Positions 820 through 58,078 of a DNA stretch of 64,000 nt are shown piece by piece. The DNA is from a virus. Each line of letters starts with the position of its first letter. Position 1 is the first letter of the stretch. The stretch lies in the IMG/VR virus record IMGVR_UViG_3300024346_000041, positions 1-64,000 of that record. One strand, given 5' to 3'. The position numbers and the translations under genes are program-made. Under the pieces are notes generated by a model. It ran no database searches, was not told where the DNA came from, and saw only the letters and a list, made by a program, of their open reading frames with translations.

Positions 820-2745
820 ATGTCTAAGCGAACTATAATCCTAAGGCACCACAGAGCTGCTGGCGACATCCTTGTAATGACAGCTGTGGTTAGGGATCTA
901 TATAAAGCATACTCTGACACCGTAGACATAGGCGTAGAGACCCCATTTCCAGAGATATGGGAAAACAACCCATACATTGTAAAGCTTAAAGATAGAAGGC
1001 TAGGAGCATCTGTATATAACTTAAGCTACGGAGATGGCATACGGAAAGCTGGTAGAGAGCCTATACACTTTATGCAAGCATTCTATGACGACTTTGAAAA
1101 AAGGTCTGGAATGAAGCTTAGCCTTACCGATCCAAAACCTGACCTACACTTATCCGAATCTGAGCTCAGCAAAAGAGCAGTTGAAGGCAGGTACTGGGTA
1201 GTGCTGTCAGGAGGTAAAGCAGACTTTACAACCAAGCACCCTAGATTCTTTGACATACAGGACTCTGTAGACGTACTAAGATCTATGGGTGTAAAGTTTG
1301 TACAAGTTGGAGCCAGCGGTGGAAAGCCAGCCAGCCTTCACAGAACCATAGAAGGAGCCATAGATCTTAGGGGTAAAACGTCGCTAAGAGATCTGATGTC
1401 TTTGATACACCATTCTGACGGAGTTATATGCACTATAACTATGGCTATGCATATGGCTGCAGCTCTGCAAAAGCCATGCGTAGTTCTAGCCGGAGGAAGA
1501 GAAGAGTGGTGGTGGGAAGGCTACGTAAGAGAAAACCCTGCTTTCAAAGGCCTTAACGTAAATGTTCCTCACAAGTATCTTCACACCATGGGCCTACTAG
1601 ACTGCTGCAGAGGACCTAGAGCTTGCTGGAAGAACAAAGTTCTAAAGTCTGAAGGAGACAAGTCTTACTGCAGCTATCCACACCTTGAGCCTGAAGGGCA
1701 GACTGTTCCATTGTGCCAGCACATGATAGGAGCCAGCAAAATAACAGAGGCTGTCCTTTACTACTATCTAACCGGAATATTACAACCATTACCAGATTGG
1801 AGTTTGAATAACATGTTACCGTCAGTTGATAAACCAACCAGCCTAGTGCTTCCAGATGGTAGAAAAGTAAAAGTAGAGGTAACAATCGACGATTATAACG
1901 ATGTTACTTCCAAAAGAAAGATTGAGCTTCCTGTACTAAAGCCAGCCAAAGTGCATGAGCCTTTAGTTGTAAACCTAGTGGAGACGTCTCCACTAGCTGC
2001 CTTAATGGATCACGAAGAGATAGGAGGGCAGTTTACGCTTTGCCTACTTATGTACGGCAAGTTCTTTGATATGCATAAAAGATGCCTTAGCGCGTTAGCT
2101 GGTGTTCCAAACACTAGGTTAGACTTAAGGGTCTACCTTAACGAAGCTTGTGCTGAAACCATAGCTATGGCTGAAGAGATGCATAAAAATAAGCAAATAT
2201 CTGTTCTGTACAGGTCTGACAGTAACAAGTTCAAATACCCTTGCATGAGAGAAATGCTACACGACAAAGATAACCCTATAACCAACAAGTGGATGATATG
2301 GTTTGACGACGATACTATGGCGGACGTGGATAACCACTGGCTTGATAAGTTATGCCAAGCTATAATAACCAGTGTAAAGTCAGATCCTAGAGTAGGAATG
2401 TTAGGTGCTAGATACTTCTTTAGCATGAGCCAGTCACATTTAAGCTGGATAAGATCTGGCTCTTGGTTCAAAGGTGTAAGCTTTAGAGATAAGGTTGGAA
2501 ACCCAGCCCCTAACGGATTTAAAGTGCACTTTGCATCTGGGTCGTGCTGGGCGTTAAAAAGAGAATGTATAAGCGAGTGCGATATACCTGACACTAGGCT
2601 TAGGCACAATGGCGGAGATGTGTGCATAGGAGAGCAGTTGTGGCAGAGTGGATGGCACCTTAAAAACTGGAATAATGATAAAAGAATAATCCTATGGTCA
2701 AGCGTGGCTAGACGCGGATACGCAGAAAGTATCTTTGGAATATGA
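820..2745 (+). CDS. Two-domain glycosyltransferase: GT9 (heptosyltransferase-like) + GT2/GT-A domain
   Basis: N-terminal GDILVMT, ENNPYI, DLRGKTSLRDL, MHMAAALQKPCVVL (GT9); C-terminal WFDDD DxD motif. Confidence 0.8.
   Translation: MSKRTIILRHHRAAGDILVMTAVVRDLYKAYSDTVDIGVETPFPEIWENNPYIVKLKDRRLGASVYNLSYGDGIRKAGREPIHFMQAFYDDFEKRSGMKLSLTDPKPDLHLSESELSKRAVEGRYWVVLSGGKADFTTKHPRFFDIQDSVDVLRSMGVKFVQVGASGGKPASLHRTIEGAIDLRGKTSLRDLMSLIHHSDGVICTITMAMHMAAALQKPCVVLAGGREEWWWEGYVRENPAFKGLNVNVPHKYLHTMGLLDCCRGPRACWKNKVLKSEGDKSYCSYPHLEPEGQTVPLCQHMIGASKITEAVLYYYLTGILQPLPDWSLNNMLPSVDKPTSLVLPDGRKVKVEVTIDDYNDVTSKRKIELPVLKPAKVHEPLVVNLVETSPLAALMDHEEIGGQFTLCLLMYGKFFDMHKRCLSALAGVPNTRLDLRVYLNEACAETIAMAEEMHKNKQISVLYRSDSNKFKYPCMREMLHDKDNPITNKWMIWFDDDTMADVDNHWLDKLCQAIITSVKSDPRVGMLGARYFFSMSQSHLSWIRSGSWFKGVSFRDKVGNPAPNGFKVHFASGSCWALKRECISECDIPDTRLRHNGGDVCIGEQLWQSGWHLKNWNNDKRIILWSSVARRGYAESIFGI
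1975..1996. repeat. Dispersed palindrome copy 1: CTAGTGGAGACGTCTCCACTAG (22 bp)
   Basis: Perfect palindrome inside the GT9-GT2 gene, read as LVETSPL. Confidence 0.95.
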
Positions 2746-2788
2746 TCGCAAGTTAAGGTACACTGTATATAGCCTGGAGGGCATAAGC

Positions 2789-3244
2789 ATGAGTAATTCT
2801 TCTAGTTCGTTTAGTTCTTCTGATACGCCATCGGACAAGCATGGTATCAAGCTAAAGCGCTACATTCAAACTAAGTACGTCATAAACAACATTGATGGAT
2901 TTAGAATGAAGGTAGAAGCCTTAGACGCTAACGGTATGAGCAACTCTATATTCCGGTACTTGCGTGGACCCCTAAGCGCATCTACAGGGCTATACCAAGA
3001 CGATTTCGATGGTATATGTTCTCCGTCTGATTTAGAAGAGTTCTATGAAAATGCTCCAGAGCCAGGGGCTAACCCATCGTGGTTTAGGAAAAGTTACGTA
3101 GACTTAGTATTCAGGTCACAGGCCACGGCTAACGAGGCCTGGGAGATGATGCTAAGCGATGTTAGGATTCTTGTAAAGACGTTAGACACAATGGAAGCTA
3201 TACAGCCAGAGATGACAGTGTCCATAGGCGACCCATTAAACTAA
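2789..3244 (+). CDS. Hypothetical protein
   Basis: ORF 2735..3244; GGAGG RBS before ATG 2789. Confidence 0.7.
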   Translation: MSNSSSSFSSSDTPSDKHGIKLKRYIQTKYVINNIDGFRMKVEALDANGMSNSIFRYLRGPLSASTGLYQDDFDGICSPSDLEEFYENAPEPGANPSWFRKSYVDLVFRSQATANEAWEMMLSDVRILVKTLDTMEAIQPEMTVSIGDPLN

Positions 3245-3254
3245 GGAGACTATT

Positions 3255-10758: not shown

Positions 10759-11866
10759 AGTCTTCGACTCTTACGACATCGAAAGATGCTTTCTTGTAGG
10801 CAGTCTTTACACCAAGGCTGTCTACAAGCTTATCAAATAAGCCTGCATCCTTCCTAGGAAGGGTTGTAAGCTCTTCTGCTAGTTTCTCAGAGTCCACCAA
10901 GAGGCCGCCGCTTGAAACCCTATCAGTGAATTCTTCACCGAAAACGCCCCTTAACTCATCTAGAGCTATAGATTCAAGTGCGGCCTTTTTATATACAGAT
11001 CCGTTAGTAAGCTGAACATGGCTGTCTAAAGCTTCTGAAGCTTTCTTAATAGACAACGAATACAGGTCGGAATAAGAACCTAGGGACTTAAGCTTATACT
11101 CTTTATCTACAGATTCTATAATTGAAGCTGCTTTATCTAAGTCAGCATCAGTTGATTCTAATACATGCTGAGCTGTCTTTGCTAGCATAGTTTGTATATC
11201 AGAGTCTTTCTTTAATGTCTTAAGAGCCTTAGCTCTGTCAAATAACATGCTGGCTGCTTTAGTTCTAGAAACTAAGCCATTAGCCGCTAACTTATTCAAA
11301 GTATCATCGTTGTCCAACTTGACTCCGTACTCTGAAGCTTTGTCTAATATCTTGCTAGATATAATCTTTCTGTCATGAAAGTTTATGTCTCCAGCAAACT
11401 TTTCAATCCAATCGGCTGCAGCTTTAACTTCGCCAGAGTTACGCAAAGGGTAGCTTCTAGACTTGTTACCGTCTTCAAAGTTAACTACCATAGCGAAGTC
11501 AGAGTCAGACAAGTCGTTCTCAGAATGTGCTCTGAGGGCTGCGTGCTTTTCTACAAGGCTGTCGACGTCTGCTCGGATTCCAAAGTAGTCAGCAGCTTTA
11601 AGTATTCGTGACTTGATTACAGAAGCCACCTTGCCAAGAGACTGTTCTTGGTCTAAAAAGTAAGACATTGAAACGTATGTTGCAGGCGAGCTGTGGCATG
11701 GGAACTTTAAAGTTCTAGTGTCGCCATAAACGTTAGGAGCTAGGTTGCCTCCTTGTCCTGTAATGTCCGACGTAGAAGCTGACTTAACAAACTCAGGAAC
11801 TTCGTAAAGCTTAGTCATACTATGCAACCCTACTCCAGCTCCATCATTAGATTGGTCTAAGATCAT
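10748..11866 (-). CDS. Hypothetical protein rich in K-x-A motifs (possible virion/head protein)
   Basis: ORF to 12004; GGAG RBS precedes ATG 11866; about 15 K-x-A/KAS motifs; two related FP/YPL segments. Confidence 0.7.
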   Translation of the reverse strand: MILDQSNDGAGVGLHSMTKLYEVPEFVKSASTSDITGQGGNLAPNVYGDTRTLKFPCHSSPATYVSMSYFLDQEQSLGKVASVIKSRILKAADYFGIRADVDSLVEKHAALRAHSENDLSDSDFAMVVNFEDGNKSRSYPLRNSGEVKAAADWIEKFAGDINFHDRKIISSKILDKASEYGVKLDNDDTLNKLAANGLVSRTKAASMLFDRAKALKTLKKDSDIQTMLAKTAQHVLESTDADLDKAASIIESVDKEYKLKSLGSYSDLYSLSIKKASEALDSHVQLTNGSVYKKAALESIALDELRGVFGEEFTDRVSSGGLLVDSEKLAEELTTLPRKDAGLFDKLVDSLGVKTAYKKASFDVVRVEDFIR

Positions 11867-14357
11867 GGCAAATACTCCGATTAGTTTAAACTTCCATGCC
11901 GGTGTTAGTTGGAACAAGGTGATGTCTATTCTAAACATCAAACCTAGTAGCAGCGCGCTACCAATTGAAATACCTTGCGCTTTCTGCCCAAGCAATCTTA
12001 CCATATATGACGATTACTCCACAACAGGACAATGGTTTTACTGCAAATCATGCCATAAGTCTGGAGACATGATAGAGCTTATGGCTGGAAAGCTTAAAAT
12101 AACTGTTAGTGAAGCCATTGCAGCGCTAGTAGCTAGCGGGGATATAGATGACTCGCCAGCTAATTACGGTAAAAAGGTACAAGACCTCTTAATACGAACA
12201 ATAGGCATGAGAGCCAAAGTACTTGAGTTATGGGAAAGGTGTAAAGAAAACAGCAAGAATATGCTACCAGACCACAGGGTCATAGCAGCTAAGATGGGGC
12301 TAAAAATAGGTCATAACTGGGAAACGCTAGGAAGCACTCTTGTAGGGTTTTGCAATAAGCTAGACGTAGATAAAGCCCTTACTATGTCAAACAACGGGCA
12401 TGACCACGTAAACCTAGGAAACAACCGAACATTTACAGGAGAAGGATGGGACGAGGTATGCGTAATACCAGCCTTTGACATGCCAGGAAGAATAAAGACG
12501 CTTGTACTAATAGGAAACCTTGCTAGTCCAGAACTAAGAGTAGTGTGCAGGCACATCTCTTATAAGCTGTGGGGACCACACGACAATGAGTGCGGAATGC
12601 TATTCCTTGAAGAAGCATTAAGATCAAACCATACTAACATAGTTGTAAGCGGAGACATGGTAGACACTGTAAGACTCGCCTTAGACTATGTAGACAGGCA
12701 CAACAGTTTTCCACCTATACTAGCCATACCTGAAGACGAAGCAAGGCTGTCGGATGCATGGAGAGCGCTAAGCTCTGAAAACAAAATTATTACAGTAGTA
12801 GGTGAAAAAGCTGAAACACTGTCAGCGTCAAGCTCTGCGATAAGAATAGCTCAAAACCCAGGGTCTTGGGAGGCTGGATGGATGGGACCCTCAAAGTGGA
12901 TAGCTAAAGTACATGCAGCTGGCGTTGTTAAAAAGAAAGTGGAGACGTCTCCACTGGATGTAGGTTGGGCAAGAGTAACTTACAACGGAGTTAGTTACGA
13001 AGAAAGACCAGACGGAATATACTGCAAAGAAAAGCTAATGTGCGATGCTATTCTTAAAATAGACAAGATAGCCATAGAAGGTTCTAAGAACTACTACACA
13101 GGAAGAATAAAATGTGGAGGCTTAGAAGCTCCGTTTAAAACTAACATGACTGCTATAGACCAGGCATTCTCAAAGTGGATTAAGGCATTCTGTATTAAAA
13201 ACGATATGCAACTGCCAGTATGTAACAATGGGTACGCTAAAGTCGCAGCAAAGATAGCTCTGCTTTCTAAACCTCCTGATAGAGAAGTACTTACCGCTGT
13301 AGCAGCAGAGAGGCAAGACATAGAATACAACTTCTGCAAGTTTGAAATAAACTCAAAAGGTGAAGTAATAGACATAAACACCTATAGAAAGCTTAACGGA
13401 ACTGAATGCTTTATTAACGAGCCTATGACAGCATTTGAAAAAGGAGCCCTGTCAGACGAGAAGTCTGCTCTAGTATGGGCTGTAATAATACCTTGCATGG
13501 CTAACGCAATAGCCAGCAAGATAGGCTTAGCTACGGTAGGAATAGGGGTAGACCCAGAATCTTTTGAAGATATTAAATTTATTGGAAATAAACTTGGATG
13601 CTATACGAATAAACTTACAGGACCAGTATTCACCAAGTCAGTCATATCTACTACATTATCTGACGAGACTAAAAGCACATTACCTGTAGTAATAGCTCCA
13701 GATAAACCAGACGCTCCTATTCAAAGGCTTGGAGTAGAAAAAGCTTCAGGGGCTAGAAACTGCATAATTCCAATGGACTACATGGCCCTACTTGGTTGCA
13801 GGACCATATCTAGATGGGTATACCTAAAGCCAAGCGCCGTAGAGATAACCAGAGACACTGAATCAGCTTTAAACAAGCTTGCGCTAAGCTTTCTATCTTG
13901 GATGGCAAAAAGCGGTTACAAGACGGCAGGGTTCGATTTAATACACAAAACAGTTAATGCTTTAGAAGAGTGGTGCAACGCAAACAAGATAGCCACTAGC
14001 GGTTTAATCATGGGAGCTACCATGATAGATTCAGACCTGTCAAACAGCCTAAACAAGTCGATAACAAACTCGTTCACTGCTCTGTGTGGTAAATTTAGCA
14101 ATATGGGTTACTTTGAAAAGTCATGTAAGCGTAAGTCAACAAGAGTGGTTAAGTTTGGAGAATCTATGTGGGTAGAGTGCAGAGAGCTATTTAATGCATG
14201 TAAAGCTCACAACGTACCTCTACTTGAACCAAGCAGGCTAGCTCAAGCACTGTTAGCTACAAAAACAATACTAGACTACGCTAACAATCCAGACACAAGA
14301 ATACCTTGCTGGGTGATAGACCCAATTATCTGGGATGAGTGGTCTACCAAGCTTTAG
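11865..14357 (+). CDS. Large protein with N-terminal primase-type zinc finger (CHC2-like)
   Basis: CAFC...FYCKSCHKSGDMIELMA resembles the DnaG zinc-binding domain; no clear TOPRIM DxD. Confidence 0.6.
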   Translation: MANTPISLNFHAGVSWNKVMSILNIKPSSSALPIEIPCAFCPSNLTIYDDYSTTGQWFYCKSCHKSGDMIELMAGKLKITVSEAIAALVASGDIDDSPANYGKKVQDLLIRTIGMRAKVLELWERCKENSKNMLPDHRVIAAKMGLKIGHNWETLGSTLVGFCNKLDVDKALTMSNNGHDHVNLGNNRTFTGEGWDEVCVIPAFDMPGRIKTLVLIGNLASPELRVVCRHISYKLWGPHDNECGMLFLEEALRSNHTNIVVSGDMVDTVRLALDYVDRHNSFPPILAIPEDEARLSDAWRALSSENKIITVVGEKAETLSASSSAIRIAQNPGSWEAGWMGPSKWIAKVHAAGVVKKKVETSPLDVGWARVTYNGVSYEERPDGIYCKEKLMCDAILKIDKIAIEGSKNYYTGRIKCGGLEAPFKTNMTAIDQAFSKWIKAFCIKNDMQLPVCNNGYAKVAAKIALLSKPPDREVLTAVAAERQDIEYNFCKFEINSKGEVIDINTYRKLNGTECFINEPMTAFEKGALSDEKSALVWAVIIPCMANAIASKIGLATVGIGVDPESFEDIKFIGNKLGCYTNKLTGPVFTKSVISTTLSDETKSTLPVVIAPDKPDAPIQRLGVEKASGARNCIIPMDYMALLGCRTISRWVYLKPSAVEITRDTESALNKLALSFLSWMAKSGYKTAGFDLIHKTVNALEEWCNANKIATSGLIMGATMIDSDLSNSLNKSITNSFTALCGKFSNMGYFEKSCKRKSTRVVKFGESMWVECRELFNACKAHNVPLLEPSRLAQALLATKTILDYANNPDTRIPCWVIDPIIWDEWSTKL
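12938..12955. repeat. Dispersed palindrome copy 2: AGTGGAGACGTCTCCACT (18 bp)
   Basis: Perfect palindrome inside a CDS (KVETSPL). Confidence 0.95.
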
Positions 14358-21342: not shown

Positions 21343-22005
21343 ATGAACGAGCCACAGTACGTAGTAGTAGAATATTATGAATCTGATAGAGGAGGTAAGC
21401 CTGGTGATAAAGGAAATAAGCTAGCTATTCATAGATTAGAAAATGGAGAAGTTGCAGCCGCTGAAGACGGCGCTCCTGAATCACAAGAAGAAGCTTTGAG
21501 AATGCTACAGGCCTTTCACAGGCCAATATACAAATCGATAGACGTTGCTAATGACGAGTGCGACAACGTTCTAGAGTATGCAGGCGATGGAGACGTCTCC
21601 ACTGACGAAGCTTTTAAAGAAGCTAAGTACGAAGTGGAAACCACTATACCCAACATGCTTATAGGTAACATACTAAAAAGCATTCCAACTGGAACTTATC
21701 ACAAGCTAGTCCTAGTGGAGTCTTCTAAGCTAAAGTGGTTTATGAAAATTGTTAGCTTCAGAAACTGCGGGGCAAAGGTAAGTGACGAGCTCAAAAGACT
21801 TGGAATGAAAGTTCCTGACCCTAAGTACTGGGTAGAGTGCTTTATATACAAAACCAAAGAAAAAGAAGAAGGCTTGGACTATGTAGGTAGCTGCTTAGTT
21901 GGCAAAGAGCTAACAGAACTGCATCTTAGTAAATACGCAGCTACAGGAGACGAGCTGTTTAATGACGAGCTATGGGAGGATAACCGTGCCAAAAGTAAAA
22001 ACTAA
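21343..22005 (+). CDS. Hypothetical protein
   Basis: AAGGAG RBS; 220 aa. Confidence 0.7.
   Translation: MNEPQYVVVEYYESDRGGKPGDKGNKLAIHRLENGEVAAAEDGAPESQEEALRMLQAFHRPIYKSIDVANDECDNVLEYAGDGDVSTDEAFKEAKYEVETTIPNMLIGNILKSIPTGTYHKLVLVESSKLKWFMKIVSFRNCGAKVSDELKRLGMKVPDPKYWVECFIYKTKEKEEGLDYVGSCLVGKELTELHLSKYAATGDELFNDELWEDNRAKSKN
21588..21601. repeat. Dispersed palindrome copy 3: TGGAGACGTCTCCA (14 bp)
   Basis: Inside a CDS, read as DGDVST (different frame from copies 1 and 2). Confidence 0.95.
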
Positions 22006-27271: not shown

Positions 27272-27309
27272 AATTTAGGCTGACAAACTCTTACTTGGAG
27301 GTAAGTAGA

Positions 27310-31943: not shown

Positions 31944-31953
31944 AAAGGTAGAC

Positions 31954-37494: not shown

Positions 37495-38409
37495 ATGGGT
37501 ACAACAGTAGAAGGTTCGGTTTTCAAGCTTGCCTTAGACAGCAACAGTGAGGTGTGGGTTATAGAAGGCGACAGAATGCCTTACAGCACTAAGCTTACTG
37601 TTGAGGGTTACATAGACAAGCTTGAGACCTCTGGAAACTGCCCTGATAAGATTCGTGTTTTAGGTAGTGGTTCAAACGCCGGTATGATTGTAAGATTGTA
37701 CCGGCTTAAAGTTAAGCACAGGCTCAAGTCTCTTGAGATAGGCAGCCCAATCATAGTATCTAACAACGATGCGCCGGCTAATCTTATTAAGATGAGAATG
37801 GCTTCAGCTATTCCGTCTTTAGGTGGTTGGCATGAGGCTGATATGTTAGATTGCGCTTCATACGGGGTTGGGGCTCTTATAAGATCAGAGACAGAAGGCT
37901 CTCACATAAAAGCTTGTGAGCTAATGAAGCAGCATCCTGTATGGAACTATGTAAGCTTCATACCTCATATAGATGACATGTTCTTCACAAAGGTTATGGC
38001 TAGAATAGGTGACCCAAGGTGGTATATAGACCCTAACCATCCATCTAGGCTTTCAAGGTTGTATTCTTGGCTTGGCTTGTGCAATGGACCACAGACTGAC
38101 GATAAGCTTGTAAAGAAGTTTGACGTTTACTCCTGTTGGTCTAAAGGTCTGTCAGCTTCTATATCCGAGATGGCTAGGCCTGGTTGGTTTATTATAAGAG
38201 AAGGCAGTACTAAATGGGCAAACCACAAGCCTTGGGTTAGTTCGTTAAGAATGTCTCAGCTCTTTATCAAGTTTGTACGTATGGCTTGGATGGACAGCAT
38301 ATACCCATATCCAAACCCTTGGATGGAAAAAGTGTTTGATCCAGATCTTTTCTTTTCACAAGAGAAGGATTCAATAGGTCTGGCTATTCACCTGAGCAAG
38401 TTGAAGTAG
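37495..38409 (+). CDS. Degenerate IS110-transposase/Nop-domain-like protein
   Basis: HPVWNYVSFIPHID...VMARIGDPRWY...SRLYSWLGL resembles the Transposase_20/Nop helix-hairpin region; C-terminal SLRMSQLFIKFVRMAW helix. Confidence 0.55.
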   Translation: MGTTVEGSVFKLALDSNSEVWVIEGDRMPYSTKLTVEGYIDKLETSGNCPDKIRVLGSGSNAGMIVRLYRLKVKHRLKSLEIGSPIIVSNNDAPANLIKMRMASAIPSLGGWHEADMLDCASYGVGALIRSETEGSHIKACELMKQHPVWNYVSFIPHIDDMFFTKVMARIGDPRWYIDPNHPSRLSRLYSWLGLCNGPQTDDKLVKKFDVYSCWSKGLSASISEMARPGWFIIREGSTKWANHKPWVSSLRMSQLFIKFVRMAWMDSIYPYPNPWMEKVFDPDLFFSQEKDSIGLAIHLSKLK

Positions 38410-41665: not shown

Positions 41666-43324
41666 ATGCATGATAAATCTGAAAGTTTAGTGGACACCAC
41701 TATAGAGACGGTCTACAGGCTTGATTCAACTACAGTAGACTTTATGGTAAAGCATCTTATAGCTGATCGTCTGCTTATACTTGAGTCATTAGAGTATTTT
41801 AACACAGGATACTTTAGTCATGATGAGCGGGCTTACAGAGTTATCGTTAACGGTATTAAGCTTTACATGAAGACGGTTTACAAAGACCTAACGCTTACAG
41901 CTGAAATATTTAAAACTATAACTATAGATGATGACGAGCTTAGAGGAGGCACTCATGAATCAGCTCAACTTAAGCAGTCTGTGTTTCAAATAATAGACGA
42001 GGCTTTCTTAGTTCCTAAGGACAACATAGAAGCTAACCGTCATATATGTAGAGAGGTTATTCAAAGGTTTTTAACTGAGAGAGGCGTACACGATAAGCTG
42101 TATAGTCACTTTAGTAAGACATCATCTGTTCAATCGGTGTCTAAAGACCCTTCCATATTGTTAGGTCATTTTAGCAAAATATACAACAACTTTAAAGGAG
42201 CTGGCTCATCAGCAATGTGTGAGTCTATTCCAGATGTTTGGAAACCTAACATAGCTATAGGAGCTCCAATGGGACTACCTTACTTTGACAAGTTTATGAC
42301 AGGAGGGGTTGCAGCTGGAGATATTTACGGTCTTCTTGCTGGTACAGGTGCAGGTAAGACTTGGATGGGTATAAACATTATAGCCAACCATTGTTTTACT
42401 GAGCGAGCTAGAGAGATTCTATGTTTAGCTGAAGGAAGGCCTTATAAGCGTAAAGTAGGAGTTTATGCTAACTACGAAGGTAACATAGATTCTATAAGAC
42501 TTAGACTTGCTGCAACTGTGTCTAAAACCCCATTAAATACTATTAAGGCTCACGTTATTAATGGAGCTCTTCTTTCAACTAGTGGCAACCTTAAAGATTA
42601 TGAGCTAAAAAGATACTCAGGAGTTATAGAAGAGGTTCTTAGGATTTCAGAGTCAGATAGGTTTAGGGATACGAAATCCTTAGTTAACACGTATGTTCAA
42701 CTTCTTGACATGAGTGGCTCTGGAGGTACTAAGCTTGGACATGGTTATACCTCTGAGCTTACAGCTCAAGTTGACAAGCTAGTTAACTTTAAGAACGTTG
42801 AGATAGCCTTGATGGTTGTCGACTACGTTAAGCTTATTGTTGACAGGCATATATCAGCTAAGGGTATAAAAGTTGAGAATATGCGCCACTACATACGAAA
42901 GCTTGCTGAGGATGTATCAGTCAATATAGGTCTTAGCTATAACTGCTGCGTTTGGCTTCTGCATCAGCTTAGTGGAGAAGCTAATAGTATTAAAGCTCAT
43001 AAGCCTCTTCATCACTCTATGGCTAGTGAGTGTAAAGATTTTGCTGAGAACTGTCATAGAATGTTCTGCCTTGGGCAGAAGGATTTAAACAGCGGATGTC
43101 AAAGACTTGACGCCACTAAATATAGGGAGGATGAACACACTTCTAAGAATTGTGCAGTTATAAAGTTTGAAGCTGATTCATGTACTTACTCTTTAAACAA
43201 CGAATGGGTAATAGATGAGCAGGCAGGTTTTATAAGGGCTTCATTCTCAGGCAGTTCTATGGATGTCCCAACAAGCCGAAGTTACAAAGCAGCTTCTAAT
43301 GATTACTCTGACAGGGATTCCTAG
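41666..43324 (+). CDS. dnaB: DnaB-like replicative helicase
   Basis: AGTGAGKT, NYEG, MVVDY, LLHQL, KYRE. Confidence 0.85.
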   Translation: MHDKSESLVDTTIETVYRLDSTTVDFMVKHLIADRLLILESLEYFNTGYFSHDERAYRVIVNGIKLYMKTVYKDLTLTAEIFKTITIDDDELRGGTHESAQLKQSVFQIIDEAFLVPKDNIEANRHICREVIQRFLTERGVHDKLYSHFSKTSSVQSVSKDPSILLGHFSKIYNNFKGAGSSAMCESIPDVWKPNIAIGAPMGLPYFDKFMTGGVAAGDIYGLLAGTGAGKTWMGINIIANHCFTERAREILCLAEGRPYKRKVGVYANYEGNIDSIRLRLAATVSKTPLNTIKAHVINGALLSTSGNLKDYELKRYSGVIEEVLRISESDRFRDTKSLVNTYVQLLDMSGSGGTKLGHGYTSELTAQVDKLVNFKNVEIALMVVDYVKLIVDRHISAKGIKVENMRHYIRKLAEDVSVNIGLSYNCCVWLLHQLSGEANSIKAHKPLHHSMASECKDFAENCHRMFCLGQKDLNSGCQRLDATKYREDEHTSKNCAVIKFEADSCTYSLNNEWVIDEQAGFIRASFSGSSMDVPTSRSYKAASNDYSDRDS

Positions 43325-43335: not shown

Positions 43336-44394
43336 ATGAGCACTTCGACTAGTTACGATGATGTATTGTGCCCTGAACTATACTTTAAGCTTAAGAAGTT
43401 GTTTGGTCAGGTCTATGTTAATAATAGAGGGGTCGGCATGGTGATGCGCCCCTCATCTAATGGAGAGAGGCCTACCTCTATAGTAAATGGAGAATATTAC
43501 AGGGTCTGCTGCCCTTTTTGTAAAGAGACAAGACATAGGTTGTACATAAACCATAGATGGTTTGAATATAGGCATATGGCAAACTGTTTTAACGAGACAG
43601 CATGTACTAGAGGCGAGTTAGGTAAGCTTAACCTAGACCAGCTTCACATGTGGCTTTTTAACACGTCTTCTAAGATAACTCTTTCAGTAGTTGATAAGCC
43701 TATGTCTTCTGAAGCATTGATTTCACTTACTGAGTGCAGAGCTCCTGAAAGGCTTACAAGTCTATCGGCTCTTAGTAAGGACCACGAAGCCGTAAAGTAT
43801 GTTGAGTCTAGAGGGTACAATCCAGTCGTGCTTGATAAGTACTTAGGCGTAGGCTGGATAGACGATATGGCGATTCCAACTCTTAAGGAACGTTTGTACA
43901 TACCTATATTTCAAGGCTCAAAGCTAATGGGTTATCAAGCAAGAATAATTTACGATGACCCATTGAAAAAGAAGCAGAAGTATATAAACCCAGTCGGAAT
44001 GAAGAAGTCTATGCTTCTTTATAACATAGACAATGCAAAGCTACAGCCAATGATAGTAGTCTGCGAAGGTCCTATAGATGTTTGGTCTGTAGGTCCAGCA
44101 GGTGTCGCTATTTTTGGAAGTGATTGCAGCTCTGGGCAGCTTGCTTTGATAGGGCAGAATTTTAATGGCAAGCCCATAGCTATAGCTTTGGATGGAGACG
44201 TAGCTTACAAAGCTGAGTCTTTAGTTGACAAGCTTCAGCAGGCAGCTCCAAGGTCTAAGATTATAAGAGTTAATATGGCTAAGGATGAAGACCCTGGTTC
44301 TTTAAAGATGGAGTTGTGGAGACGTCTCCAATCTCAGTTTCAAGACATAGGAGAAGCGATGCCAGAAGTATCAAAGGAGTGGCCTAATGATTGA
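43336..44394 (+). CDS. dnaG: DnaG-type (TOPRIM) DNA primase
   Basis: Zn finger CCPFC...CFN, Y.ESRG, YQAR, KYINP, VCEGPID, ALDGD, DPG. Confidence 0.88.
   Translation: MSTSTSYDDVLCPELYFKLKKLFGQVYVNNRGVGMVMRPSSNGERPTSIVNGEYYRVCCPFCKETRHRLYINHRWFEYRHMANCFNETACTRGELGKLNLDQLHMWLFNTSSKITLSVVDKPMSSEALISLTECRAPERLTSLSALSKDHEAVKYVESRGYNPVVLDKYLGVGWIDDMAIPTLKERLYIPIFQGSKLMGYQARIIYDDPLKKKQKYINPVGMKKSMLLYNIDNAKLQPMIVVCEGPIDVWSVGPAGVAIFGSDCSSGQLALIGQNFNGKPIAIALDGDVAYKAESLVDKLQQAAPRSKIIRVNMAKDEDPGSLKMELWRRLQSQFQDIGEAMPEVSKEWPND
44317..44330. repeat. Dispersed palindrome copy 6: TGGAGACGTCTCCA (14 bp)
   Basis: Inside the primase gene, read as WRRLQ (third frame). Confidence 0.95.
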
Positions 44395-47300
44395 TTTAAT
44401 AAAAGACTTTAAAAGCATATGCACTTATAGAAACTTTCTTTTGCTACAGGAGGGGACAGGTCCTTTAATAAACTACCCTTTTATATTTCCTTCTAAGAAT
44501 AAGCATATAGTAGCAAAGCCAGGGCCTGACTTTTATCAGTGTGCTGATAAGTTAGCAGGCCCTGAGTATCCGGAAGCAGTAGATTTCTACTCTGACTTTC
44601 TTTACTTTAGGGCTTTGTACTGCCAAAACTTTAGTCTTCCAGTTTTGTTTAATGGAAACATATTAAACGTAAACATGGTTCCTGGTAGCGGTTGGATGGA
44701 CAACTGCAGGCCTGGTCCTTTTAGGAAGTTTAAATGCATGGTAGTTGGTAAGTGTGCTTCCAACTTAGACGTAGCTCATGGAAAGATAGTTTTAGGTAAT
44801 AATAAGAGTCAGTTATACAGTCACCTTTCAAATATTAAAGGGCTATCTGCTGCAGATTTTTATATGACTTGTTCTGTAAAACATACGCTGCTTGATCCTG
44901 CTAGCAATGCTCTTAAAGCAAATTGGATACATAACTGTGCTCCGCTGCTAAAGATAGAGATGGCATTGGTTAAGCCTGACTTCATGCTTCTACTTGGTGA
45001 CGAGGCTATCAAGGCTGTCCTTGGTAGAGACAAGCGCTTACATACATCTACTGGTAAAGTGTTTGAAGTTAACATTCCTTTGCCTGATGGATCTTTTCAC
45101 ACAGCAAAGGCTATAACCTGCGTTAACCCAGCTTACGTTCTTAGATACCCTGAGCATAGTGATAGATTTGAAGCTTCTTTGAACCACTTCTCTGCGTTAT
45201 GCAATGACGTAGAGTTCTTGTCTAAAGAAACTAATATAAATCACTTTGCCGTTAGAACTAGCGAAGAGCTTTTAAAAGTTAGAGACGAGATACTTAAAGA
45301 TACTGCACCAGTAGTAGCGGTTGACCTTGAGTGGAATGGTGCATGGCCTGGAGATAAGAACTCTTACGTTAGGACAGTGCAGCTATCTTGGAAGTCTGGA
45401 GTTGCTTGCAGTATAATCGTAAATCAGGCTGGAGGAGGCTTTGTATTTGACGGAGGCCCTGACGCTTTAAGCTCTATACTAAACTCAATATTCTATCCAG
45501 AAGATGGAAGGCACATCAGAGTTGTAGGTCATTACCTTACTTCTGACTTGCCTTGGCTCAAGTCTATAGGTGTTGATCTTTCAAGCTTATTTGTAGCTCC
45601 AGAGGACGACCCCGTAAGCATGTACGGTCCTGACTATAAGTTTGGTTTTGAAAAGACTAAAGACTTTGGCGGTTTTGATACACTTCTAGCTGCTCACTCT
45701 GTAAATGAGACTGACTACTTTAATTTAGAGGAGCAGGCTGTAAGGTACTGCGGAGTACCGAGATGGGAAGGGCCTATTCTTGATTGGCGTAAGTCTCACT
45801 GTAGGGCTAAGGGTATAAAAGATTCAGAGCTGGAAGGATACGGAGACTGCCCTGATGATGTCATTATACCTTATGGTTGTTATGACGCAGATGTTACAAG
45901 AAGGCTCTTTGACTACTACAACGGCCATGGCAGTGTTAAGGGTAAGCTTGACGCTGATAAGTACGGTAATAACTGTAGGCCTGCTTTTTGGCTGTCTTCA
46001 AGAGCGTATCCTGCGTTCATAGAGATGCACGAAAAAGGAATATTAATAGATAAAGCAAGAGTGTTAGAGCTTACTGACTCTTACAACCTTCTTTATGAAA
46101 ACTTGATGGTTAAGATAAGAGCCGTCATACATTGGCCCGACTATAATCCATCAAGTACATTTCATAACAGAGAGCTTCTTTTTGGTGAGGAGCTATCTGG
46201 TAAGAGGGACATAAACGGCGGGTTCATAAAACAAAGACCTGACGATGCTATGACTCTTTCTTTAACACCTTATAAGAGTACTGGTACAGGATCTAAAGGT
46301 AAACTGTGGGCTGACCTTATAACCAAAAGGGAAGAGCACATGTATACCGCTGCCGTAGACAAGGAGACTCTTACCATATTGGCAGAAAAGCACCCAGTAG
46401 TGGCTATGCTTAGAGACATAAGGTCGCTTCATTACTTACGGACTACTGTTCTTAGAGGTCCAGACTTTGATGACGCAGGTAATGAGAAGACTGATTCTGA
46501 AGGTGACATAGTTTATGACAAGGGCATTCTCTCGTACATGAATGCTGACGACAGAGTTAGATCTATGTTTAGCCAGACTAAAGAAACAGGCCGTGCTTCT
46601 TCATCTAGGCCAAATATGCAGAACCTCGGAAAGACTATAGAAGAAAAGTACAAAGGTATATTTAAGCTGCATGGTAAAGACCTTGGAATGAACTATACGT
46701 ATCCTCTCAGGTCTGTGATAAGTGCAAGGCCTGGAACTGTACTGGTAGAGGCTGACTATACTGGCGCTGAACTGGCAATCATGGCTTGGCAGTCTGGTGA
46801 TAAGAACATGATTGACCATGTTCGTAGAGCTAACCTTCCAGAGGATCACCCAGACCACTACGACATCCATAGTAATGTGGCTGTAAATACATTTAGGTTG
46901 AATTGCCCAGCTACCAAGAAAGGACTCAAGGATATAGGTAAGTCAGGTATTAGAACAGCTGCTAAAGCTGTGGTATTTGGTTACGCCTATGGTCAGGGGG
47001 CTGACTCTACCGCTAGAAAAGCTAAGCAAGAGGGTGTCATAATATCTGTAAGAGAAGCTCAAGAGCTTATAGATGGTTTGGTTGCAATGTACCCTAAGCT
47101 TCCTTTGTACTTCAATGAGTGCAAGTCTAGAGTCAAACACCCAGGCTGGATGAGCAATGCTTTTGGAAGATACAGGAGATTTTCTCCTAGTGAAGATAGG
47201 CTTGTCGTGGCTGAGTATGAACGACAAAGCATGAATTTTCCAATCCAATCTGCGGTAGCTGACGCTATGTCATGCGCCCTAGATCACATATACAGCTACA

Positions 47301-47593
47301 GAAGCGCTGCACCAGTAGGCATGACCTACGACATAATACTTCAGGTTCACGATGCCGTGATTCTTGAGGTTCCATATGCTTGTGTAGAGTGGGTAGTTGA
47401 TACTGTCTTGCCGGTCTGTATGAGTGACAAGGTTGAAATTAGATCTTGTAATTTAGACGGAACGATGAGGAGCGGTAGTAACGGTCCTTTTCATCTAGGT
47501 ATAGCAACGGAGGTATTCACTAAGTGGTCGATACCGCTTACCAAAGAGGACTGTAAAGTTATGGGCATACCTGAGAGGTTTGCCCAGCATTAG
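44387..47593 (+). CDS. polA: Family A DNA polymerase with N-terminal UDG-like and 3'-5' exonuclease domains
   Basis: UDG4-like KPDFMLLLG..A, NPAYVLR; exonuclease VDLEW, YGCYDAD; TGRASSSRPNMQN, ADYTGAEL, RTAAKAVVFGYAYG, NFPIQS, QVHDA. Confidence 0.95.
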   Translation: MIDLIKDFKSICTYRNFLLLQEGTGPLINYPFIFPSKNKHIVAKPGPDFYQCADKLAGPEYPEAVDFYSDFLYFRALYCQNFSLPVLFNGNILNVNMVPGSGWMDNCRPGPFRKFKCMVVGKCASNLDVAHGKIVLGNNKSQLYSHLSNIKGLSAADFYMTCSVKHTLLDPASNALKANWIHNCAPLLKIEMALVKPDFMLLLGDEAIKAVLGRDKRLHTSTGKVFEVNIPLPDGSFHTAKAITCVNPAYVLRYPEHSDRFEASLNHFSALCNDVEFLSKETNINHFAVRTSEELLKVRDEILKDTAPVVAVDLEWNGAWPGDKNSYVRTVQLSWKSGVACSIIVNQAGGGFVFDGGPDALSSILNSIFYPEDGRHIRVVGHYLTSDLPWLKSIGVDLSSLFVAPEDDPVSMYGPDYKFGFEKTKDFGGFDTLLAAHSVNETDYFNLEEQAVRYCGVPRWEGPILDWRKSHCRAKGIKDSELEGYGDCPDDVIIPYGCYDADVTRRLFDYYNGHGSVKGKLDADKYGNNCRPAFWLSSRAYPAFIEMHEKGILIDKARVLELTDSYNLLYENLMVKIRAVIHWPDYNPSSTFHNRELLFGEELSGKRDINGGFIKQRPDDAMTLSLTPYKSTGTGSKGKLWADLITKREEHMYTAAVDKETLTILAEKHPVVAMLRDIRSLHYLRTTVLRGPDFDDAGNEKTDSEGDIVYDKGILSYMNADDRVRSMFSQTKETGRASSSRPNMQNLGKTIEEKYKGIFKLHGKDLGMNYTYPLRSVISARPGTVLVEADYTGAELAIMAWQSGDKNMIDHVRRANLPEDHPDHYDIHSNVAVNTFRLNCPATKKGLKDIGKSGIRTAAKAVVFGYAYGQGADSTARKAKQEGVIISVREAQELIDGLVAMYPKLPLYFNECKSRVKHPGWMSNAFGRYRRFSPSEDRLVVAEYERQSMNFPIQSAVADAMSCALDHIYSYRSAAPVGMTYDIILQVHDAVILEVPYACVEWVVDTVLPVCMSDKVEIRSCNLDGTMRSGSNGPFHLGIATEVFTKWSIPLTKEDCKVMGIPERFAQH

Positions 47594-55188: not shown

Positions 55189-55194
55189 CCCACC

Positions 55195-56385
55195 ATGGCT
55201 ACAAGATCCCCTAGTAACGAACCTACCAACCTCGCCGTCTCCTTACGGGGTGCGTTGTTTCATAGAACCGACTATGAAAAGCTAGTTAATGTTTTAGCTG
55301 ACTGTGAAAGGACTACTGATTCTTGGATGATAGACTCCGAGGATCAGCTTGTACTTTCTAGAAAAGCTTTAACAGCTGGGGGTGATCGTATCTCATGGTT
55401 GGCTATGCGCCAGATTTGCAAAGCTCTATCTGCAGGTCTGGCGTCTTCTCTTGCCGACTTATTAGGAATGAGAAGATCTGCAGACGCCATGGATAAACCG
55501 TCAAAAGTTAAAGCAGACCCTGATGAAGACTTTACAGTCGGAGAGGCTGCATCCTTATACAACCTTGTTCTTAAGAAAAGGTTTGGTAGATTGTTTGGTT
55601 TCCAGGCCATTAGAAACTCTGAGACGAGAGTCATAGAGGCTCTAGTAGGCAATAGGTACAGGAGGTTATCCAATAGTGATTTTTTATCGGCTGTTTCTAG
55701 TGTTATGGGTTCTTGTAGCGTAAGTCTTTCTTTCTTCTCTGCTGAGCTGTCCGGAAGACGCGTATCCCTAGTATACTCTACGAACGGCTACGATGAGACA
55801 GGGCTTACACCAGGCATAAGGCTTGTTAATAGCGAGATAGGAGACTCGGCCATAAAAGCGGCTGTAGTACTTATTGATAGCAAAGGAGCCACTATGCAGT
55901 CTTCTTATGGAAGAATGGGAAGAGTAGCTCATTCAGGAAGAGACCTTCTTGGTAAGTTATCTCAACTCATTGTAGGTGTAGTAGCTAAGCTTGAAAACAA
56001 GACATTTTCTAAAGAGTCTATTGCTAAGAAAGAGTCAGACGCTCAGAGTAGGCTTCTAGGTTTTACAGGTGAAGAGAAGGATGAAGCTAGGTTTCGTTCG
56101 TTAGTTGAGTTCTTAACTGACAGGGGTGGTCTTACTTACTTTATGTCTAGACGGTGCCTGTCTATGGTTCTTACTGGTGATGAACCTGCTTCAAACAACT
56201 TCCTCATGCTAGATAGATCTAAGAACTGGCCAAGTAGGTCTGCTATGGACTTGGTACGTTCTATAACTATGGAGAGTCTTGAGCAGAGATCTCTCAACTT
56301 CTCCAACACGGACAAATACGAGCGAATAGCTTGGAATTTGTTTTTTAACAGGTTGGTTTTGCCGGATATTGTTTCCGGTGAATAG
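55195..56385 (+). CDS. DUF932-like protein
   Basis: A.RQIC..L, RYRRLSNSDFL, GIRLVNSEIG. Confidence 0.55.
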   Translation: MATRSPSNEPTNLAVSLRGALFHRTDYEKLVNVLADCERTTDSWMIDSEDQLVLSRKALTAGGDRISWLAMRQICKALSAGLASSLADLLGMRRSADAMDKPSKVKADPDEDFTVGEAASLYNLVLKKRFGRLFGFQAIRNSETRVIEALVGNRYRRLSNSDFLSAVSSVMGSCSVSLSFFSAELSGRRVSLVYSTNGYDETGLTPGIRLVNSEIGDSAIKAAVVLIDSKGATMQSSYGRMGRVAHSGRDLLGKLSQLIVGVVAKLENKTFSKESIAKKESDAQSRLLGFTGEEKDEARFRSLVEFLTDRGGLTYFMSRRCLSMVLTGDEPASNNFLMLDRSKNWPSRSAMDLVRSITMESLEQRSLNFSNTDKYERIAWNLFFNRLVLPDIVSGE

Positions 56386-56412
56386 TCTTTTCTTTTACAA
56401 CTGAGGTGATTC

Positions 56413-57321
56413 ATGAAAGACAAATTAGAAGCAATTGAAAAAGATACTGAGTTGGCTGCAAATCAGCATGTCAAATCAAGTGAACCCAATAAGCCAGATA
56501 TAACTGATTCTATGAGCGACGAGCTATTTGAGATTTACGAGAAGGAAAAGAAAGCTTACCAAGAGTTTAGAGACGATATGATTAGCTTTAACTACGACAG
56601 GGGTAGCGTAGCTAGAACTGTCAGAGGTAATCCTAAGCTTGGAGATAAAGCTGTAGAACAACTTTCTAAGGCTCTTTCAGTTGATAAATCAACTGTCTAT
56701 AAGACTATTACTTTTAGCTCTATGTATACAACTAAGTCAGAGCTTAACAAGGTAGTACAGCGAGCTAAGGATTCTGGGTTTGTATTAACTTGGTCTCACT
56801 TCGCTAGCGTTATGCATCTTCCGAGTTCTTCAGAAACAGACCCACATGATAATAGAAGAAAGATGATAGACAAGGCTATATCTGGTAAGCTTTCGGTTAG
56901 AGATCTTATGTCTGAGATCAAGACTGAGTTCGGCGGTACCACTGCTAAGAGGACTGCTAACAGAGGGTCAGAGGTATCTTCTTCTATCAAGCAGGTCATC
57001 AGCGGTACTGAAAGGTATCAGGCAAAGATTAAGGCTCAAGTTGAAAACATATTGGCTGACTTTACTGAAGTCGTAAACCAGATAGAAAAACCTGATGAGT
57101 TTTTATCAAAAGTAGAGGAGATGCATGAGACTGTAGCCACCCTTAGTTCCATGTTGGCTAGGATTTTAGTATTTACTGAAAACCTTCCATCTGTTACCAA
57201 GAAGGCCATAGAAGAAAGAGATGCCGCTAAGAAGGCACTAACCGATACTGACAAGTCTGAAGCGCTATCCAAGACTAAGTCAAGGAGGCCAGCGTCTATA
57301 GACTCTAAGTTAAGTAGCTGA
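56413..57321 (+). CDS. HTH DNA-binding protein (DUF1016 N-terminal/ParB-DBD-like) with coiled-coil tail
   Basis: GDKAVEQLSKALSVDKSTVYK..F...Y, LTWSHF, R...I..A....LSVRDL...I. Confidence 0.6.
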   Translation: MKDKLEAIEKDTELAANQHVKSSEPNKPDITDSMSDELFEIYEKEKKAYQEFRDDMISFNYDRGSVARTVRGNPKLGDKAVEQLSKALSVDKSTVYKTITFSSMYTTKSELNKVVQRAKDSGFVLTWSHFASVMHLPSSSETDPHDNRRKMIDKAISGKLSVRDLMSEIKTEFGGTTAKRTANRGSEVSSSIKQVISGTERYQAKIKAQVENILADFTEVVNQIEKPDEFLSKVEEMHETVATLSSMLARILVFTENLPSVTKKAIEERDAAKKALTDTDKSEALSKTKSRRPASIDSKLSS

Positions 57322-57328
57322 GGTTATA

Positions 57329-58078
57329 TTGAGCACTACGATATGCTGTTTGATGTACGGAGACTACCCTAAGCTGGCTTTAAGGTGTTTAAACCCTATA
57401 AGCCAGCTTTATAAAAGCGGAGTCGAAGTTAGAATAGGACTAAACGAAACGTCTGAGGCTACCAATAAGGTAGTCTCAGATCTTTTCATTAATAGCGACA
57501 GGTTAGTCAACCTTAGCTTTAACCCACAGATATTCAAATACCCTATGATGGATAGGCTTTTCAAGGCAAAGCCTATTACCACCGACTACGTTATGTGGTT
57601 CGATGACGATAGCTTTATAAAGGACTCTAATCCATTGGCGTGGCTGTCAGCTACTGAGAAGTTTATGAACGATAGCGAATCAGACATGGCAGGCGCTATA
57701 TACCACATACCCATATTACCAGGACAGACCGAGTGGAGACGTCTCCACTGCGACTGGTTTGTAAGTGGACCTCTTCCTGGAAGACCAGAGATGACAAAGT
57801 TTGCTACAGGAGGTTGGTGGATTATTAAGACAAGTGTGATAAACAAGTATAAGTGGCCTCATCCAATGCTTAAGCATTGCGGAGGGGATGTCCTTTTAGG
57901 CGAGCTAATAAGGCATCAAGGTCTTAAACTTTCAAGCTATAAGGCTGGCGTCGCTGTAAACGCAGACGATAACGGAAAAGAATCTGCATCTGATAGACGA
58001 GGCTATAACGAGCCACCTCTTGGTTCTAAGAAGTCTCAGATTGAAGTATGGAATGACAGATTTAAGAAAGAAGGGTGA
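57329..58078 (+). CDS. GT2/GT-A glycosyltransferase, paralog of the C-terminal domain of 820..2745
   Basis: C.LMYG, FKYP.M, PIT...MWFDDD, FA.G..W, L.H.GGDV..GE, RRGY.E shared. Confidence 0.75.
   Translation: MSTTICCLMYGDYPKLALRCLNPISQLYKSGVEVRIGLNETSEATNKVVSDLFINSDRLVNLSFNPQIFKYPMMDRLFKAKPITTDYVMWFDDDSFIKDSNPLAWLSATEKFMNDSESDMAGAIYHIPILPGQTEWRRLHCDWFVSGPLPGRPEMTKFATGGWWIIKTSVINKYKWPHPMLKHCGGDVLLGELIRHQGLKLSSYKAGVAVNADDNGKESASDRRGYNEPPLGSKKSQIEVWNDRFKKEG
57732..57749. repeat. Dispersed palindrome copy 7: AGTGGAGACGTCTCCACT (18 bp)
   Basis: Inside the GT2 gene, read as EWRRLH. Confidence 0.95.

Follow-up and report, generated by a model that had tools for sequence, protein, structure and literature searches.

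A perfect 14-bp palindrome, TGGAGACGTCTCCA, recurs along the window analyzed here, that is, the first 64 kb of the IMG/VR virus contig IMGVR_UViG_3300024346_000041 (G000 below; 75,404 bp and, according to CheckV, 36% complete, which points to a full length of around 200 kb). The sites are real, under selection at the nucleotide level, evenly spaced, conserved in position, and specific to one clade of uncultured, aquatic phages with genomes of approximately 190 to 200 kb. A protein probably reads the palindromes. The more specific explanation, that they are docking sites for a phage-encoded dimeric DNA-binding protein that marks the genome in units of approximately 8 kb, is in our judgment evenly balanced between true and false.

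Palindrome copies in the window and the source contig

Seven exact copies of TGGAGACGTCTCCA lie in the window, with cores starting at positions 1979, 12940, 21588, 27344, 36514, 44317, and 57734 and with gaps of 10961, 8648, 5756, 9170, 7803, and 13417 bp between them. Depending on the copy, the perfect palindrome extends over 14 to 22 bp, and both 22-mers (copies 1 and 5) are identical. Variants with one or two mismatches are absent from the window. The seven copies are read in three frames, as (V/L)ETSP four times, WRRL twice, and GDVS once. Our recount returned the same coordinates, extended lengths, gaps, and frames as the first-pass annotation, an earlier reading of this window made from its letters alone. 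The annotation's statement that every copy is intragenic holds within the window (7/7) and is not true of the full contig, which has 10 copies; of the three outside the window, those at 74331 and 74808 are intergenic, and the other starts at 65140.

None of 100 dinucleotide shuffles of the window yielded a TGGAGACGTCTCCA copy. A shuffle of synonymous codons, set beforehand as a check, preserves every protein and the codon usage gene by gene; it reduced the number of intragenic copies from 8 to approximately 0.02 in the G000 contig and from 19 to approximately 0.09 in G001, a 190-kb relative. This null, the different peptide readings, and the perfect orthologous copies in diverged flanks described below bear out the earlier proposal that selection acts on the DNA and not on a peptide. 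The proposal had also pointed to two paralogous glycosyltransferase (GT) genes with sites at non-homologous places, and this placement was verified: the C-terminal part of the product of 820–2745 is 29% identical to the product of 57329–58078 (E 5e-25), and the two sites do not correspond.

The palindrome contains BsmBI and AatII sites, and an assembly or library artefact had been named as a possible source of the array. Contigs from other studies cover the sites at 27344, 36514, and 44317 with zero differences, and one strain has 24 differences in 318 bp, yet retains the 14-mer intact. Because these contigs and the divergent strain carry the sites, a cloning or assembly artefact is excluded.

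Distribution among phages and hosts

In a scan of IMG/VR, a small set of large contigs stood out with many exact copies of the 14-mer. Nine contigs related to G000 hold between 4 and 23 perfect copies: G001 (190 kb, 92% complete) has 23, G002 (181 kb) and G003 (101.5 kb) have 14 each, G004 (93 kb) has 11, G040 (102.5 kb) and G026 (82.2 kb) have nine each, G005 (136.8 kb) has eight, G024 (75.3 kb) has five, and G025 (68 kb) has four. The array-bearing records form one clade, in which the large terminases are at least 82% identical. The clade spans a GC content of 41–47% and several species-level lineages, with one exact core throughout. No TGGAGACGTCTCCA copy was found in 21 further relatives (terminase approximately 47–55% identical), several of which are complete at approximately 200 kb. 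Unrelated viral contigs hold single copies, consistent with chance.

A search of host genomes, as suggested by the first-pass annotation, revealed no repeated 18-mer: among 185,579 prokaryote species genomes, there were only seven matches, each of them single. Because the array is restricted to a clade and the 18-mer is not repeated in any species genome, the array belongs to the phage lineage and not to a host chromosome. A host chromosomal system was therefore rejected; the two matches that were checked are unrelated to the phage. In the literature, the 12-mer core was found only in two unrelated papers on MamK and magnetosomes.

Conservation, turnover, and spacing of the sites

G000 and G001 are approximately 90% identical, whereas G002, G005, G024, and G025 are only 67–71% identical to these two. 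Many sites are perfect at the orthologous nucleotide position though their flanks have diverged (66–71% identity). A protein-guided table showed that approximately 10 of the 19 intragenic sites of G001 are perfect, or have one mismatch, in every lineage that holds the gene; the rest are lineage-specific.

The copies in the window (no strand assigned) behave accordingly. Copy 7 (57732–57749; 18 bp, core 57734–57747; WRRL) lies in the GT2-like gene 57329–58078 and is perfect in G001, G002, G040, G005, G024, and G025, where the flanks are 66–67% identical. Copy 6 (44317–44330; 14 bp; WRRL) is located at the 3' end of the primase gene 43336–44394, 57 bp before the start of PolA, and is retained perfect or with one mismatch in every lineage. 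Copy 1 (1975–1996; 22 bp, core 1979–1992; VETSP), in the glycosyltransferase gene 820–2745, has a perfect ortholog in G001 and G002 between flanks that are 71% identical. Copy 2 (12938–12955; 18 bp, core 12940–12953; VETSP), in the open reading frame (ORF) 11865–14357, which adjoins the large terminase gene, is kept in G001, G002, G024, and G025. Copy 4 (27343–27358; 16 bp, core 27344–27357; LETSP), in ORF 27265–27579, directly upstream of the gene for a sigma-70 region-4 protein, is unchanged in one divergent strain and in the contig of another study. Copy 3 (21588–21601; 14 bp; GDVS), in ORF 21343–22005, is lineage-specific, and the orthologous place in G002 has two mismatches. The position of copy 5 (36510–36531; 22 bp, core 36514–36527; VETSP), in the Rad50/SbcC-like gene 35373–37487, is lineage-specific as well. 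In this gene, the site lies at 54% of the gene length in G000 and G001 and at 11% in G005, and relics with two mismatches are found in G024 and G025. The pattern is one of turnover with nearby replacement, and the positional turnover among orthologs for which the annotation had proposed to look is thus observed.

The annotation had also claimed a regular, genome-wide spacing, and this claim stands. The coefficient of variation (CV) of the gaps in G001 is 0.47, compared with 0.96 under the null (P approximately 1e-4), and the largest gap is 16 kb. The CV is 0.52 in G003 (P 0.007) and 0.36 in G005 (P < 5e-5; perfect and one-mismatch sites). Seven genomes have one site per 6.8–9.4 kb when sites with at most one mismatch are counted. 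Clustering is seen only in an early-type region of small genes, where 2.7 kb hold three copies. Of approximately nine recombination breakpoints between G000 and G001, taken as the ends of high-scoring segment pairs, two fall within 300 bp of a site, with approximately 0.7 expected, which we judged not significant.

Sequence requirements of the site

The consensus of the sites is y-A-G-TGGAGACGTCTCCA-C-T-r, with T-T / A-A as an alternative flank, and the tolerated half-site is T-R-G-A-R-R-C. Among the 35 one-mismatch variants in seven genomes, 31 have the change at half-site positions 2 (11 variants), 5 (9), or 6 (11); positions 1 (0), 3 (1), 4 (2), and 7 (1) are rarely changed. Almost all changes are transitions, and on the sense strand they would give 17 G–U and 12 A–C pairs. 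Left and right flanks are complementary in 40 of 69 cases, compared with 41.7 expected under independence. We found no flanking motif beyond ±3 bp and no −10 element beside intragenic copies. The independence of the flanks and the pattern of mismatches speak for double-stranded DNA with two half-sites that are read independently of each other, rather than for a hairpin of RNA or DNA, and the same two properties fit a protein reader with twofold symmetry.

A candidate reader encoded at 56413–57321

The gene 56413–57321 (plus strand), which lies directly upstream of the gene that holds copy 7, encodes a protein of 302 amino acids with a predicted ParB/Noc-type helix-turn-helix domain (residues ~52–176, DUF1016_N-like) and a predicted C-terminal helical dimerization domain. 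The protein begins directly with the DNA-binding domain and has no CTPase domain. Homologs are rare, with only 16 among 5.8 billion proteins (39–97% identity), two of which, P0074 and P0084, are encoded on contigs of 184–198 kb. Residues ~34–170 are highly conserved, and the helix-turn-helix, recognition helix included, does not vary within the clade; the C-terminal helices are variable. Twelve of 14 clade members match DUF1016_N, the N-terminal domain of YhcG (PF17761; best E 2.8e-6). The window protein itself reaches 22.5 bits (E 1.3e-4) against a curated cut-off of 32.8, over 126 of the 137 model positions, and positional orthologs in two more distant relatives, G012 (40.3 bits) and G014 (35.9 bits), pass this cut-off.

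An AF2 model of the candidate has a predicted local distance difference test score (pLDDT) of 74 overall and of 85–93 in the domain, with low confidence for residues 1–35. The best Foldseek matches of the model are the DNA-binding domains of ParB, Spo0J, Noc, and SopB. In VIA-align, the top 12 chains are all ParB, Noc, or Spo0J, with Z scores of 7.5–9.0 over 96–116 residues and a root mean square deviation of 3.1–3.8 (residues 52–176). A homodimer is predicted with an ipSAE of 0.77, compared with 0.00 for the best control; at least 74% of contacts recur between the runs, and the partner has a pLDDT of 77 or more. This mark was reached in calibration by 20 of 30 true homodimers and 1 of 23 single chains, counts that apply only approximately here, as a custom alignment was used. 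On the basis of these models, the candidate would be a plausible symmetric reader of a 14–18 bp palindrome that lacks a clamp domain. Its link to the sites is circumstantial, and we regard its identity as the reader as tentative, somewhat below an even chance. Searches of PDB sequences with the products of 56413–57321, 37495–38409, and 57329–58078 returned nothing useful.

Three other proteins were considered and rejected. The first, a protein of 81 amino acids (G001 85409–85654), belongs to a family with more than 600 loci, yet other phages show no palindrome upstream of the gene or dispersed over the genome. The palindrome adjoins the ribosome-binding site of this gene in G001, G002, G003, and G040; the gene is cleanly missing from G005, in which the sites look more degenerate. 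This very widespread viral family (L125:5409-5654:-), whose more than 600 loci are in IMG/VR at 60–70% identity, has invariant PPIP and GE(C)W motifs and two invariant Asn residues.

The second, the sigma-70 region-4 protein (27677–28399), shows no more than 39% identity between G000 and G001, two phages that share an unchanged motif. The flanking DNA is approximately 90% identical between these two, and the allele seems to have been replaced within a variable patch; the neighbor 28409–28927 is 71% identical. The third, the upstream neighbor of the candidate (55195–56385), was considered as a missing ParB N-terminal domain and matches no Pfam family and no ParB-like structure. This protein of 396 amino acids is conserved across the whole phage family. 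Its confident model (pLDDT 82, predicted TM score 0.79) resembles no PDB entry convincingly; the closest are an uncharacterized cyanobacterial protein (Z 7.2) and the DNA-binding domain of T4 MotA (Z 5.4).

A different palindrome in a distant relative

G012 (L256-L265), a relative with a genome of 197 kb, a GC content of 59%, and a terminase that is approximately 53% identical, has no TGGAGACGTCTCCA copy. It has a palindrome of its own, with the core TTGATATCAA and an extended length of 18 bp, present in 21 perfect and 12 one-mismatch copies, that is, 33 sites, where approximately 0.1 would be expected. Approximately one-third of these sites are intergenic, and many are located in genes that also carry sites in the TGGAGACGTCTCCA clade. 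Their spacing is not significantly regular (CV 0.77, P 0.07–0.15).

To compare positions, sites of G012 were lifted to G001 through reciprocal-best-hit orthologs. Of the 10 liftable sites, six fall at most 300 bp from a TGGAGACGTCTCCA site of G001; the null mean is 0.87, and none of 5000 permutations reached this number. The offsets carry both signs. One pair coincides: where copy 6 lies, at the primase 3' end, G012 has its different palindrome. In the gene orthologous to that of copy 2, the palindrome of G012 is approximately 296 bp off, and another G012 palindrome lies approximately 296 bp from copy 5. Because the G012 sites share neighborhoods with the TGGAGACGTCTCCA sites despite the replaced palindrome, the location of the sites matters, and not only their sequence.

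Closer relatives of G012, namely, G011, G008, and G013, have no palindrome at the spot at the primase 3' end. Among the distant relatives, no enriched long palindrome was found in G011, G014, and G015. A weak, irregular excess of TTGATATCAA-like words in G008 and G013 may be a coding repeat. Possible histories are that an old array was lost several times and re-coded at least once, or that two arrays converged on the same neighborhoods. We consider it doubtful, though worth stating, that the sites form an old, position-conserved lattice of the whole phage family, in which the places were inherited over deep divergence, site and recognition helix were exchanged together, and the reader would be a ParB-type domain without a clamp.

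The docking-site explanation and its weak points

According to the explanation that we prefer, a dimer of a phage-encoded protein with twofold symmetry would dock at each copy and would stay there without sliding away. The even array would give such a protein a foothold in every stretch of approximately 8 kb. The phage might use it for bridging or compaction of the genome, for tethering to a replication or packaging compartment, or for genome-wide control of transcription.

Several observations weigh against this explanation or against the candidate as its reader. The proposal, already made in the first-pass annotation, that 56413–57321 encodes the reader gains from the ParB/Noc-like fold and the predicted symmetric dimer, and it loses from the absence of a CTPase domain and of any sequence match to HTH_ParB (PF17762) at E ≤ 1. 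The structural match concerns a helical domain at Z < 10, a level that common arrangements can reach. Positional orthologs with DUF1016_N occur in G011 and G014, both of which have no clear palindrome array, which means that the candidate gene is not sufficient for an array. Approximately 70 other genes are equally clade-specific, and a filter on gene content therefore does not discriminate among possible readers. The positional ortholog in G012 has a different recognition helix, as would be expected if helix and motif changed together, and this covariation rests on two independent groups only. Sliding or spreading of the kind known for ParB, KorB, and Noc is not available to a protein without a CTPase domain; because such clamp-type action at a distance is unavailable, the explanation offers no selective reason for the even spacing. 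Finally, in the early region, the center of the palindrome is approximately 42 bp upstream of a putative transcription start, a placement that fits an ordinary activator or operator too.

Genomic context and alternative explanations

That last observation leads to the strongest of the alternatives, which we nevertheless consider improbable: a genome-wide operator array of a global regulator, either a repressor or a class-II-type activator that would switch many transcription units together, comparable to KorB/OB or stoperators, with the intragenic copies serving as roadblocks or as silencers at a distance. Only 5% of G001 is intergenic, yet 4–6 of its 23 sites are there. In the early region, the cassettes follow the order of a terminator T-run with AGCTATCA, the palindrome, CTTAATCCAACC...TGCGTCATAAT, and a small lineage-specific gene, and three copies lie between the terminator and a −10-like CATAAT. 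Conserved intergenic copies adjoin the ribosome-binding site of the gene for the 81-amino-acid protein and precede phoH, and a copy lies upstream of PolA. Site specificity depends on the clade, as in immunity systems. On the other hand, genes contain 75–80% of the copies, in any frame and with no preferred relative position or bias toward gene ends, and the intragenic copies have no conserved promoter element. One of the four early cassettes has no palindrome. Regulation itself does not require even spacing, and we found no sign of lysogeny in the form of a tyrosine integrase in five genomes (six-frame search; serine recombinases were not searched).

The early-cassette region corresponds to G000 74,200–75,400 and L126:6100-9400, and the AGCTATCA/T-run word also occurs in distant relatives (G005, G008). 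The phoH leader of approximately 60 nt (L144:10279-10346 in G003; also in G001 and G002) is strongly conserved, with a hairpin, ccgggttaatacccgg, directly after the palindrome copy; it matches no Rfam family.

Less probable still is that the sites are cleaved or nicked by a phage nuclease, either a lambda-gpA-type terminase acting with a small HNH protein or another enzyme. Cleavage could serve headful-gated packaging ("multi-cos", with the largest gap below the tolerance of the capsid), produce T5-like nicks, or create breaks from which recombination-dependent replication would start. The phage has a large terminase of the cos-cutting GpA type, a small HNH protein encoded in the structural module, and Rad50/Mre11-like and UvsX recombination genes. 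The strict 14-bp core with its 4-bp center and the maximum gap of 16 kb in G001 are compatible with such a role, and a packaging rule would entail even spacing. However, the ends of the G000 and G001 contigs are not at sites, assembled contigs from other runs pass through sites, and the spectrum of tolerated single mismatches resembles that of a binding site more than that of a nuclease site.

We regard two further explanations as very unlikely. In one of them, the palindrome would act as a hairpin in RNA or single-stranded DNA, as a processing, antitermination, or pausing signal that is reloaded along a one-directional gene array of 190 kb. Nearly all genes are indeed on one strand, the extended copies fold at −10.7 to −14.8 kcal/mol as RNA, and at the gene for the 81-amino-acid protein, the CUCC arm could pair instead with the Shine-Dalgarno GGAG. 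However, the copies of only 14 bp fold weakly (−6.9 kcal/mol, z −0.86), covariation of the flanks does not lengthen the stem, G–U is not significantly preferred over A–C on the sense strand, and mismatches gather at half-site positions 2, 5, and 6 and not only at the stem ends. The other explanation invokes a host factor, with the sites as decoys that titrate a host regulator or defense protein or as a means of recruiting a host nucleoid protein; that the only phage reader at hand is a candidate, that a decoy is indifferent to intragenic placement, and that the TG...CG...CA frame with its central CG presumably recalls operators of the LacI family speak for it, whereas the unrepeated 18-mer in the species genomes, the one exact core across several species-level lineages and the GC range of the clade, and the conserved, evenly spaced positions that a decoy does not require speak against it.

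Comparison with known dispersed-site systems

The docking-site explanation invites comparison with systems in which one site is repeated over a replicon. KorB of the IncP plasmid RK2 has a ParB-family DNA-binding domain and binds OB, a 16-bp site scattered over the replicon; it is a CTP-dependent sliding clamp whose partner is KorA, and its action extends to promoters as far as approximately 1.5 kb away (PMC11790492). The likeness lies in one short palindrome dispersed over a mobile replicon (23 copies in 190 kb of G001 and 10 in the 75 kb of G000) and in the fact that OB acts on many loci at once, some of them far from promoters. The systems differ in that neither a CTPase domain nor ParA nor, with no search aimed at it, a KorA-like partner was found here, the sites are mostly mid-gene with an even spacing of approximately 8 kb, and the replicon is a phage of approximately 190 kb with no sign of a plasmid or prophage life.

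Noc of Bacillus subtilis spreads from its sites (NBS) and has a CTPase domain and a membrane-targeting helix; the NBS are unevenly spaced and avoid the terminus. The palindrome described here is likewise perfect over 14 bp, recurs across a chromosome, and is tolerated within genes, and the modeled domain of the candidate aligns to the DNA-binding domain of Noc (Z 8.3–8.7; 6y93, 7ol9). In contrast to Noc and the NBS, we found no ParB_N CTPase match and, in a model of low confidence at residues 1–35, saw no membrane-targeting helix, and the spacing is even.

Cluster A mycobacteriophages, which are temperate, carry stoperators, asymmetric sites that are mostly intergenic and follow the direction of transcription. 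Both arrays comprise some two dozen copies of a 13–14 bp site over a phage genome, and both show a specificity that co-evolves with the reader between subclades, for the present array insofar as the candidate is its reader. The site here is symmetric and mostly intragenic, in genomes for which the integrase search described above was negative.

The annotation had compared the array to parS/ParB and to matS. The likeness to matS does not hold, as the sites are not confined to one region. With ParABS systems, the array shares a palindromic site of 14–16 bp with a central CG/ACGT, and the fold predicted for the candidate is like that of the ParB and SopB DNA-binding domains. Here, however, the sites are spread genome-wide at intervals of approximately 7.7 kb, with 23 per genome, compared with 1–10. 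Grigoriev and Lobocka (2001, as cited in PMC5016525) are said to have described several separate centromere sites in prophage N15. A six-frame search for ParB_N (PF02195) gave no match at E ≤ 0.01 in G000, G001, G002, G003, and G005, whereas control genomes matched, and the single ParA model searched, a ParA-type Walker ATPase (PF13614), had no match in G000, G001, G002, G005, and G012. Because neither a ParB CTPase domain nor ParA was found, partition by ParABS is not supported; there was no sequence match to HTH_ParB either, and the sites are unclustered. Plasmid-type partition as the role of the array is accordingly most improbable. With the clamp domain and ParA not found, the array cannot be assigned to ParABS, KorB, or Noc, and we would describe it, by analogy, as one that may work like a dispersed ParB-type site array rather than as a par system.

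Other genes of the array-bearing phages

The phages are far from any isolate; their fusion of PolA and uracil-DNA glycosylase is approximately 25% identical to the polymerases of T5-like and Bacillus phages. In the window, this gene (44387–47593) encodes a family A DNA polymerase fused to an N-terminal domain of the uracil-DNA-glycosylase superfamily and a 3'–5' exonuclease. The phages encode a GpA-type large terminase, Rad50/Mre11-like proteins, UvsX, a DnaB-like helicase, and a primase, and further CobS/CobT, PhoH, a class II ribonucleotide reductase, the sigma-70 region-4 protein, and many glycosyltransferases. A restriction-modification or methylation target would call for a matching phage DNA methyltransferase; six-frame searches found none of the N6/N4 (PF01555) or C5 (PF00145) types in G001, G002, G003, G005, and G012, and other families were not searched.

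The sugar genes (30460–33156, 820–2745, and 57329–58078) comprise an RGP/UDP-arabinopyranose-mutase-like protein, a sulfotransferase, GT9/GT2 fusions, and a GT2 paralog, and could serve to glycosylate virion proteins or DNA. The small protein with an HNH endonuclease domain (approximately 116 amino acids; G001 42908–43258, with orthologs at G002 119709–120083 and G005 32896–33207) is encoded within the structural module, a long way from the large terminase of the GpA type. The gene 37495–38409, between the Rad50-like gene and an SF2 helicase gene, encodes 304 amino acids with a weak match to a PHROG "transposase" (E 1.9e-4); its identity is 65% in G002 and 31–34% in G005, G024, and G025, far below that of its neighbors. 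G001 (L121-L130) also contains two repeated 12-mers, AGGAAACCAAGG (42 copies) and AGGCTATCAAGG (35 copies), in what looks like a gene with collagen-like Gly-X-Y repeats, probably a fiber gene.

Implications

Dispersed palindromes and their ParB-family readers organize or silence bacterial chromosomes and plasmids. In the literature, we found no description of a genome-wide, evenly spaced palindrome array in large phages without a sign of lysogeny. The present case supplies a precise site grammar, that is, which half-site positions tolerate change, and such arrays could mark metagenomic contigs as belonging to one phage lineage. That neighborhoods are kept despite replacement of the palindrome indicates that the layout, and not only the sequence, is under selection. 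If the candidate without a clamp domain were confirmed as the reader, the known sliding mechanism could not explain the array. If the doubtful reading of an old, position-conserved lattice with a clamp-less reader is true, these phages would possess a genome-organizing system that differs from ParABS, KorB, and Noc, perhaps one of fixed anchors that divide the genome into domains of approximately 8 kb for replication, packaging, or silencing.

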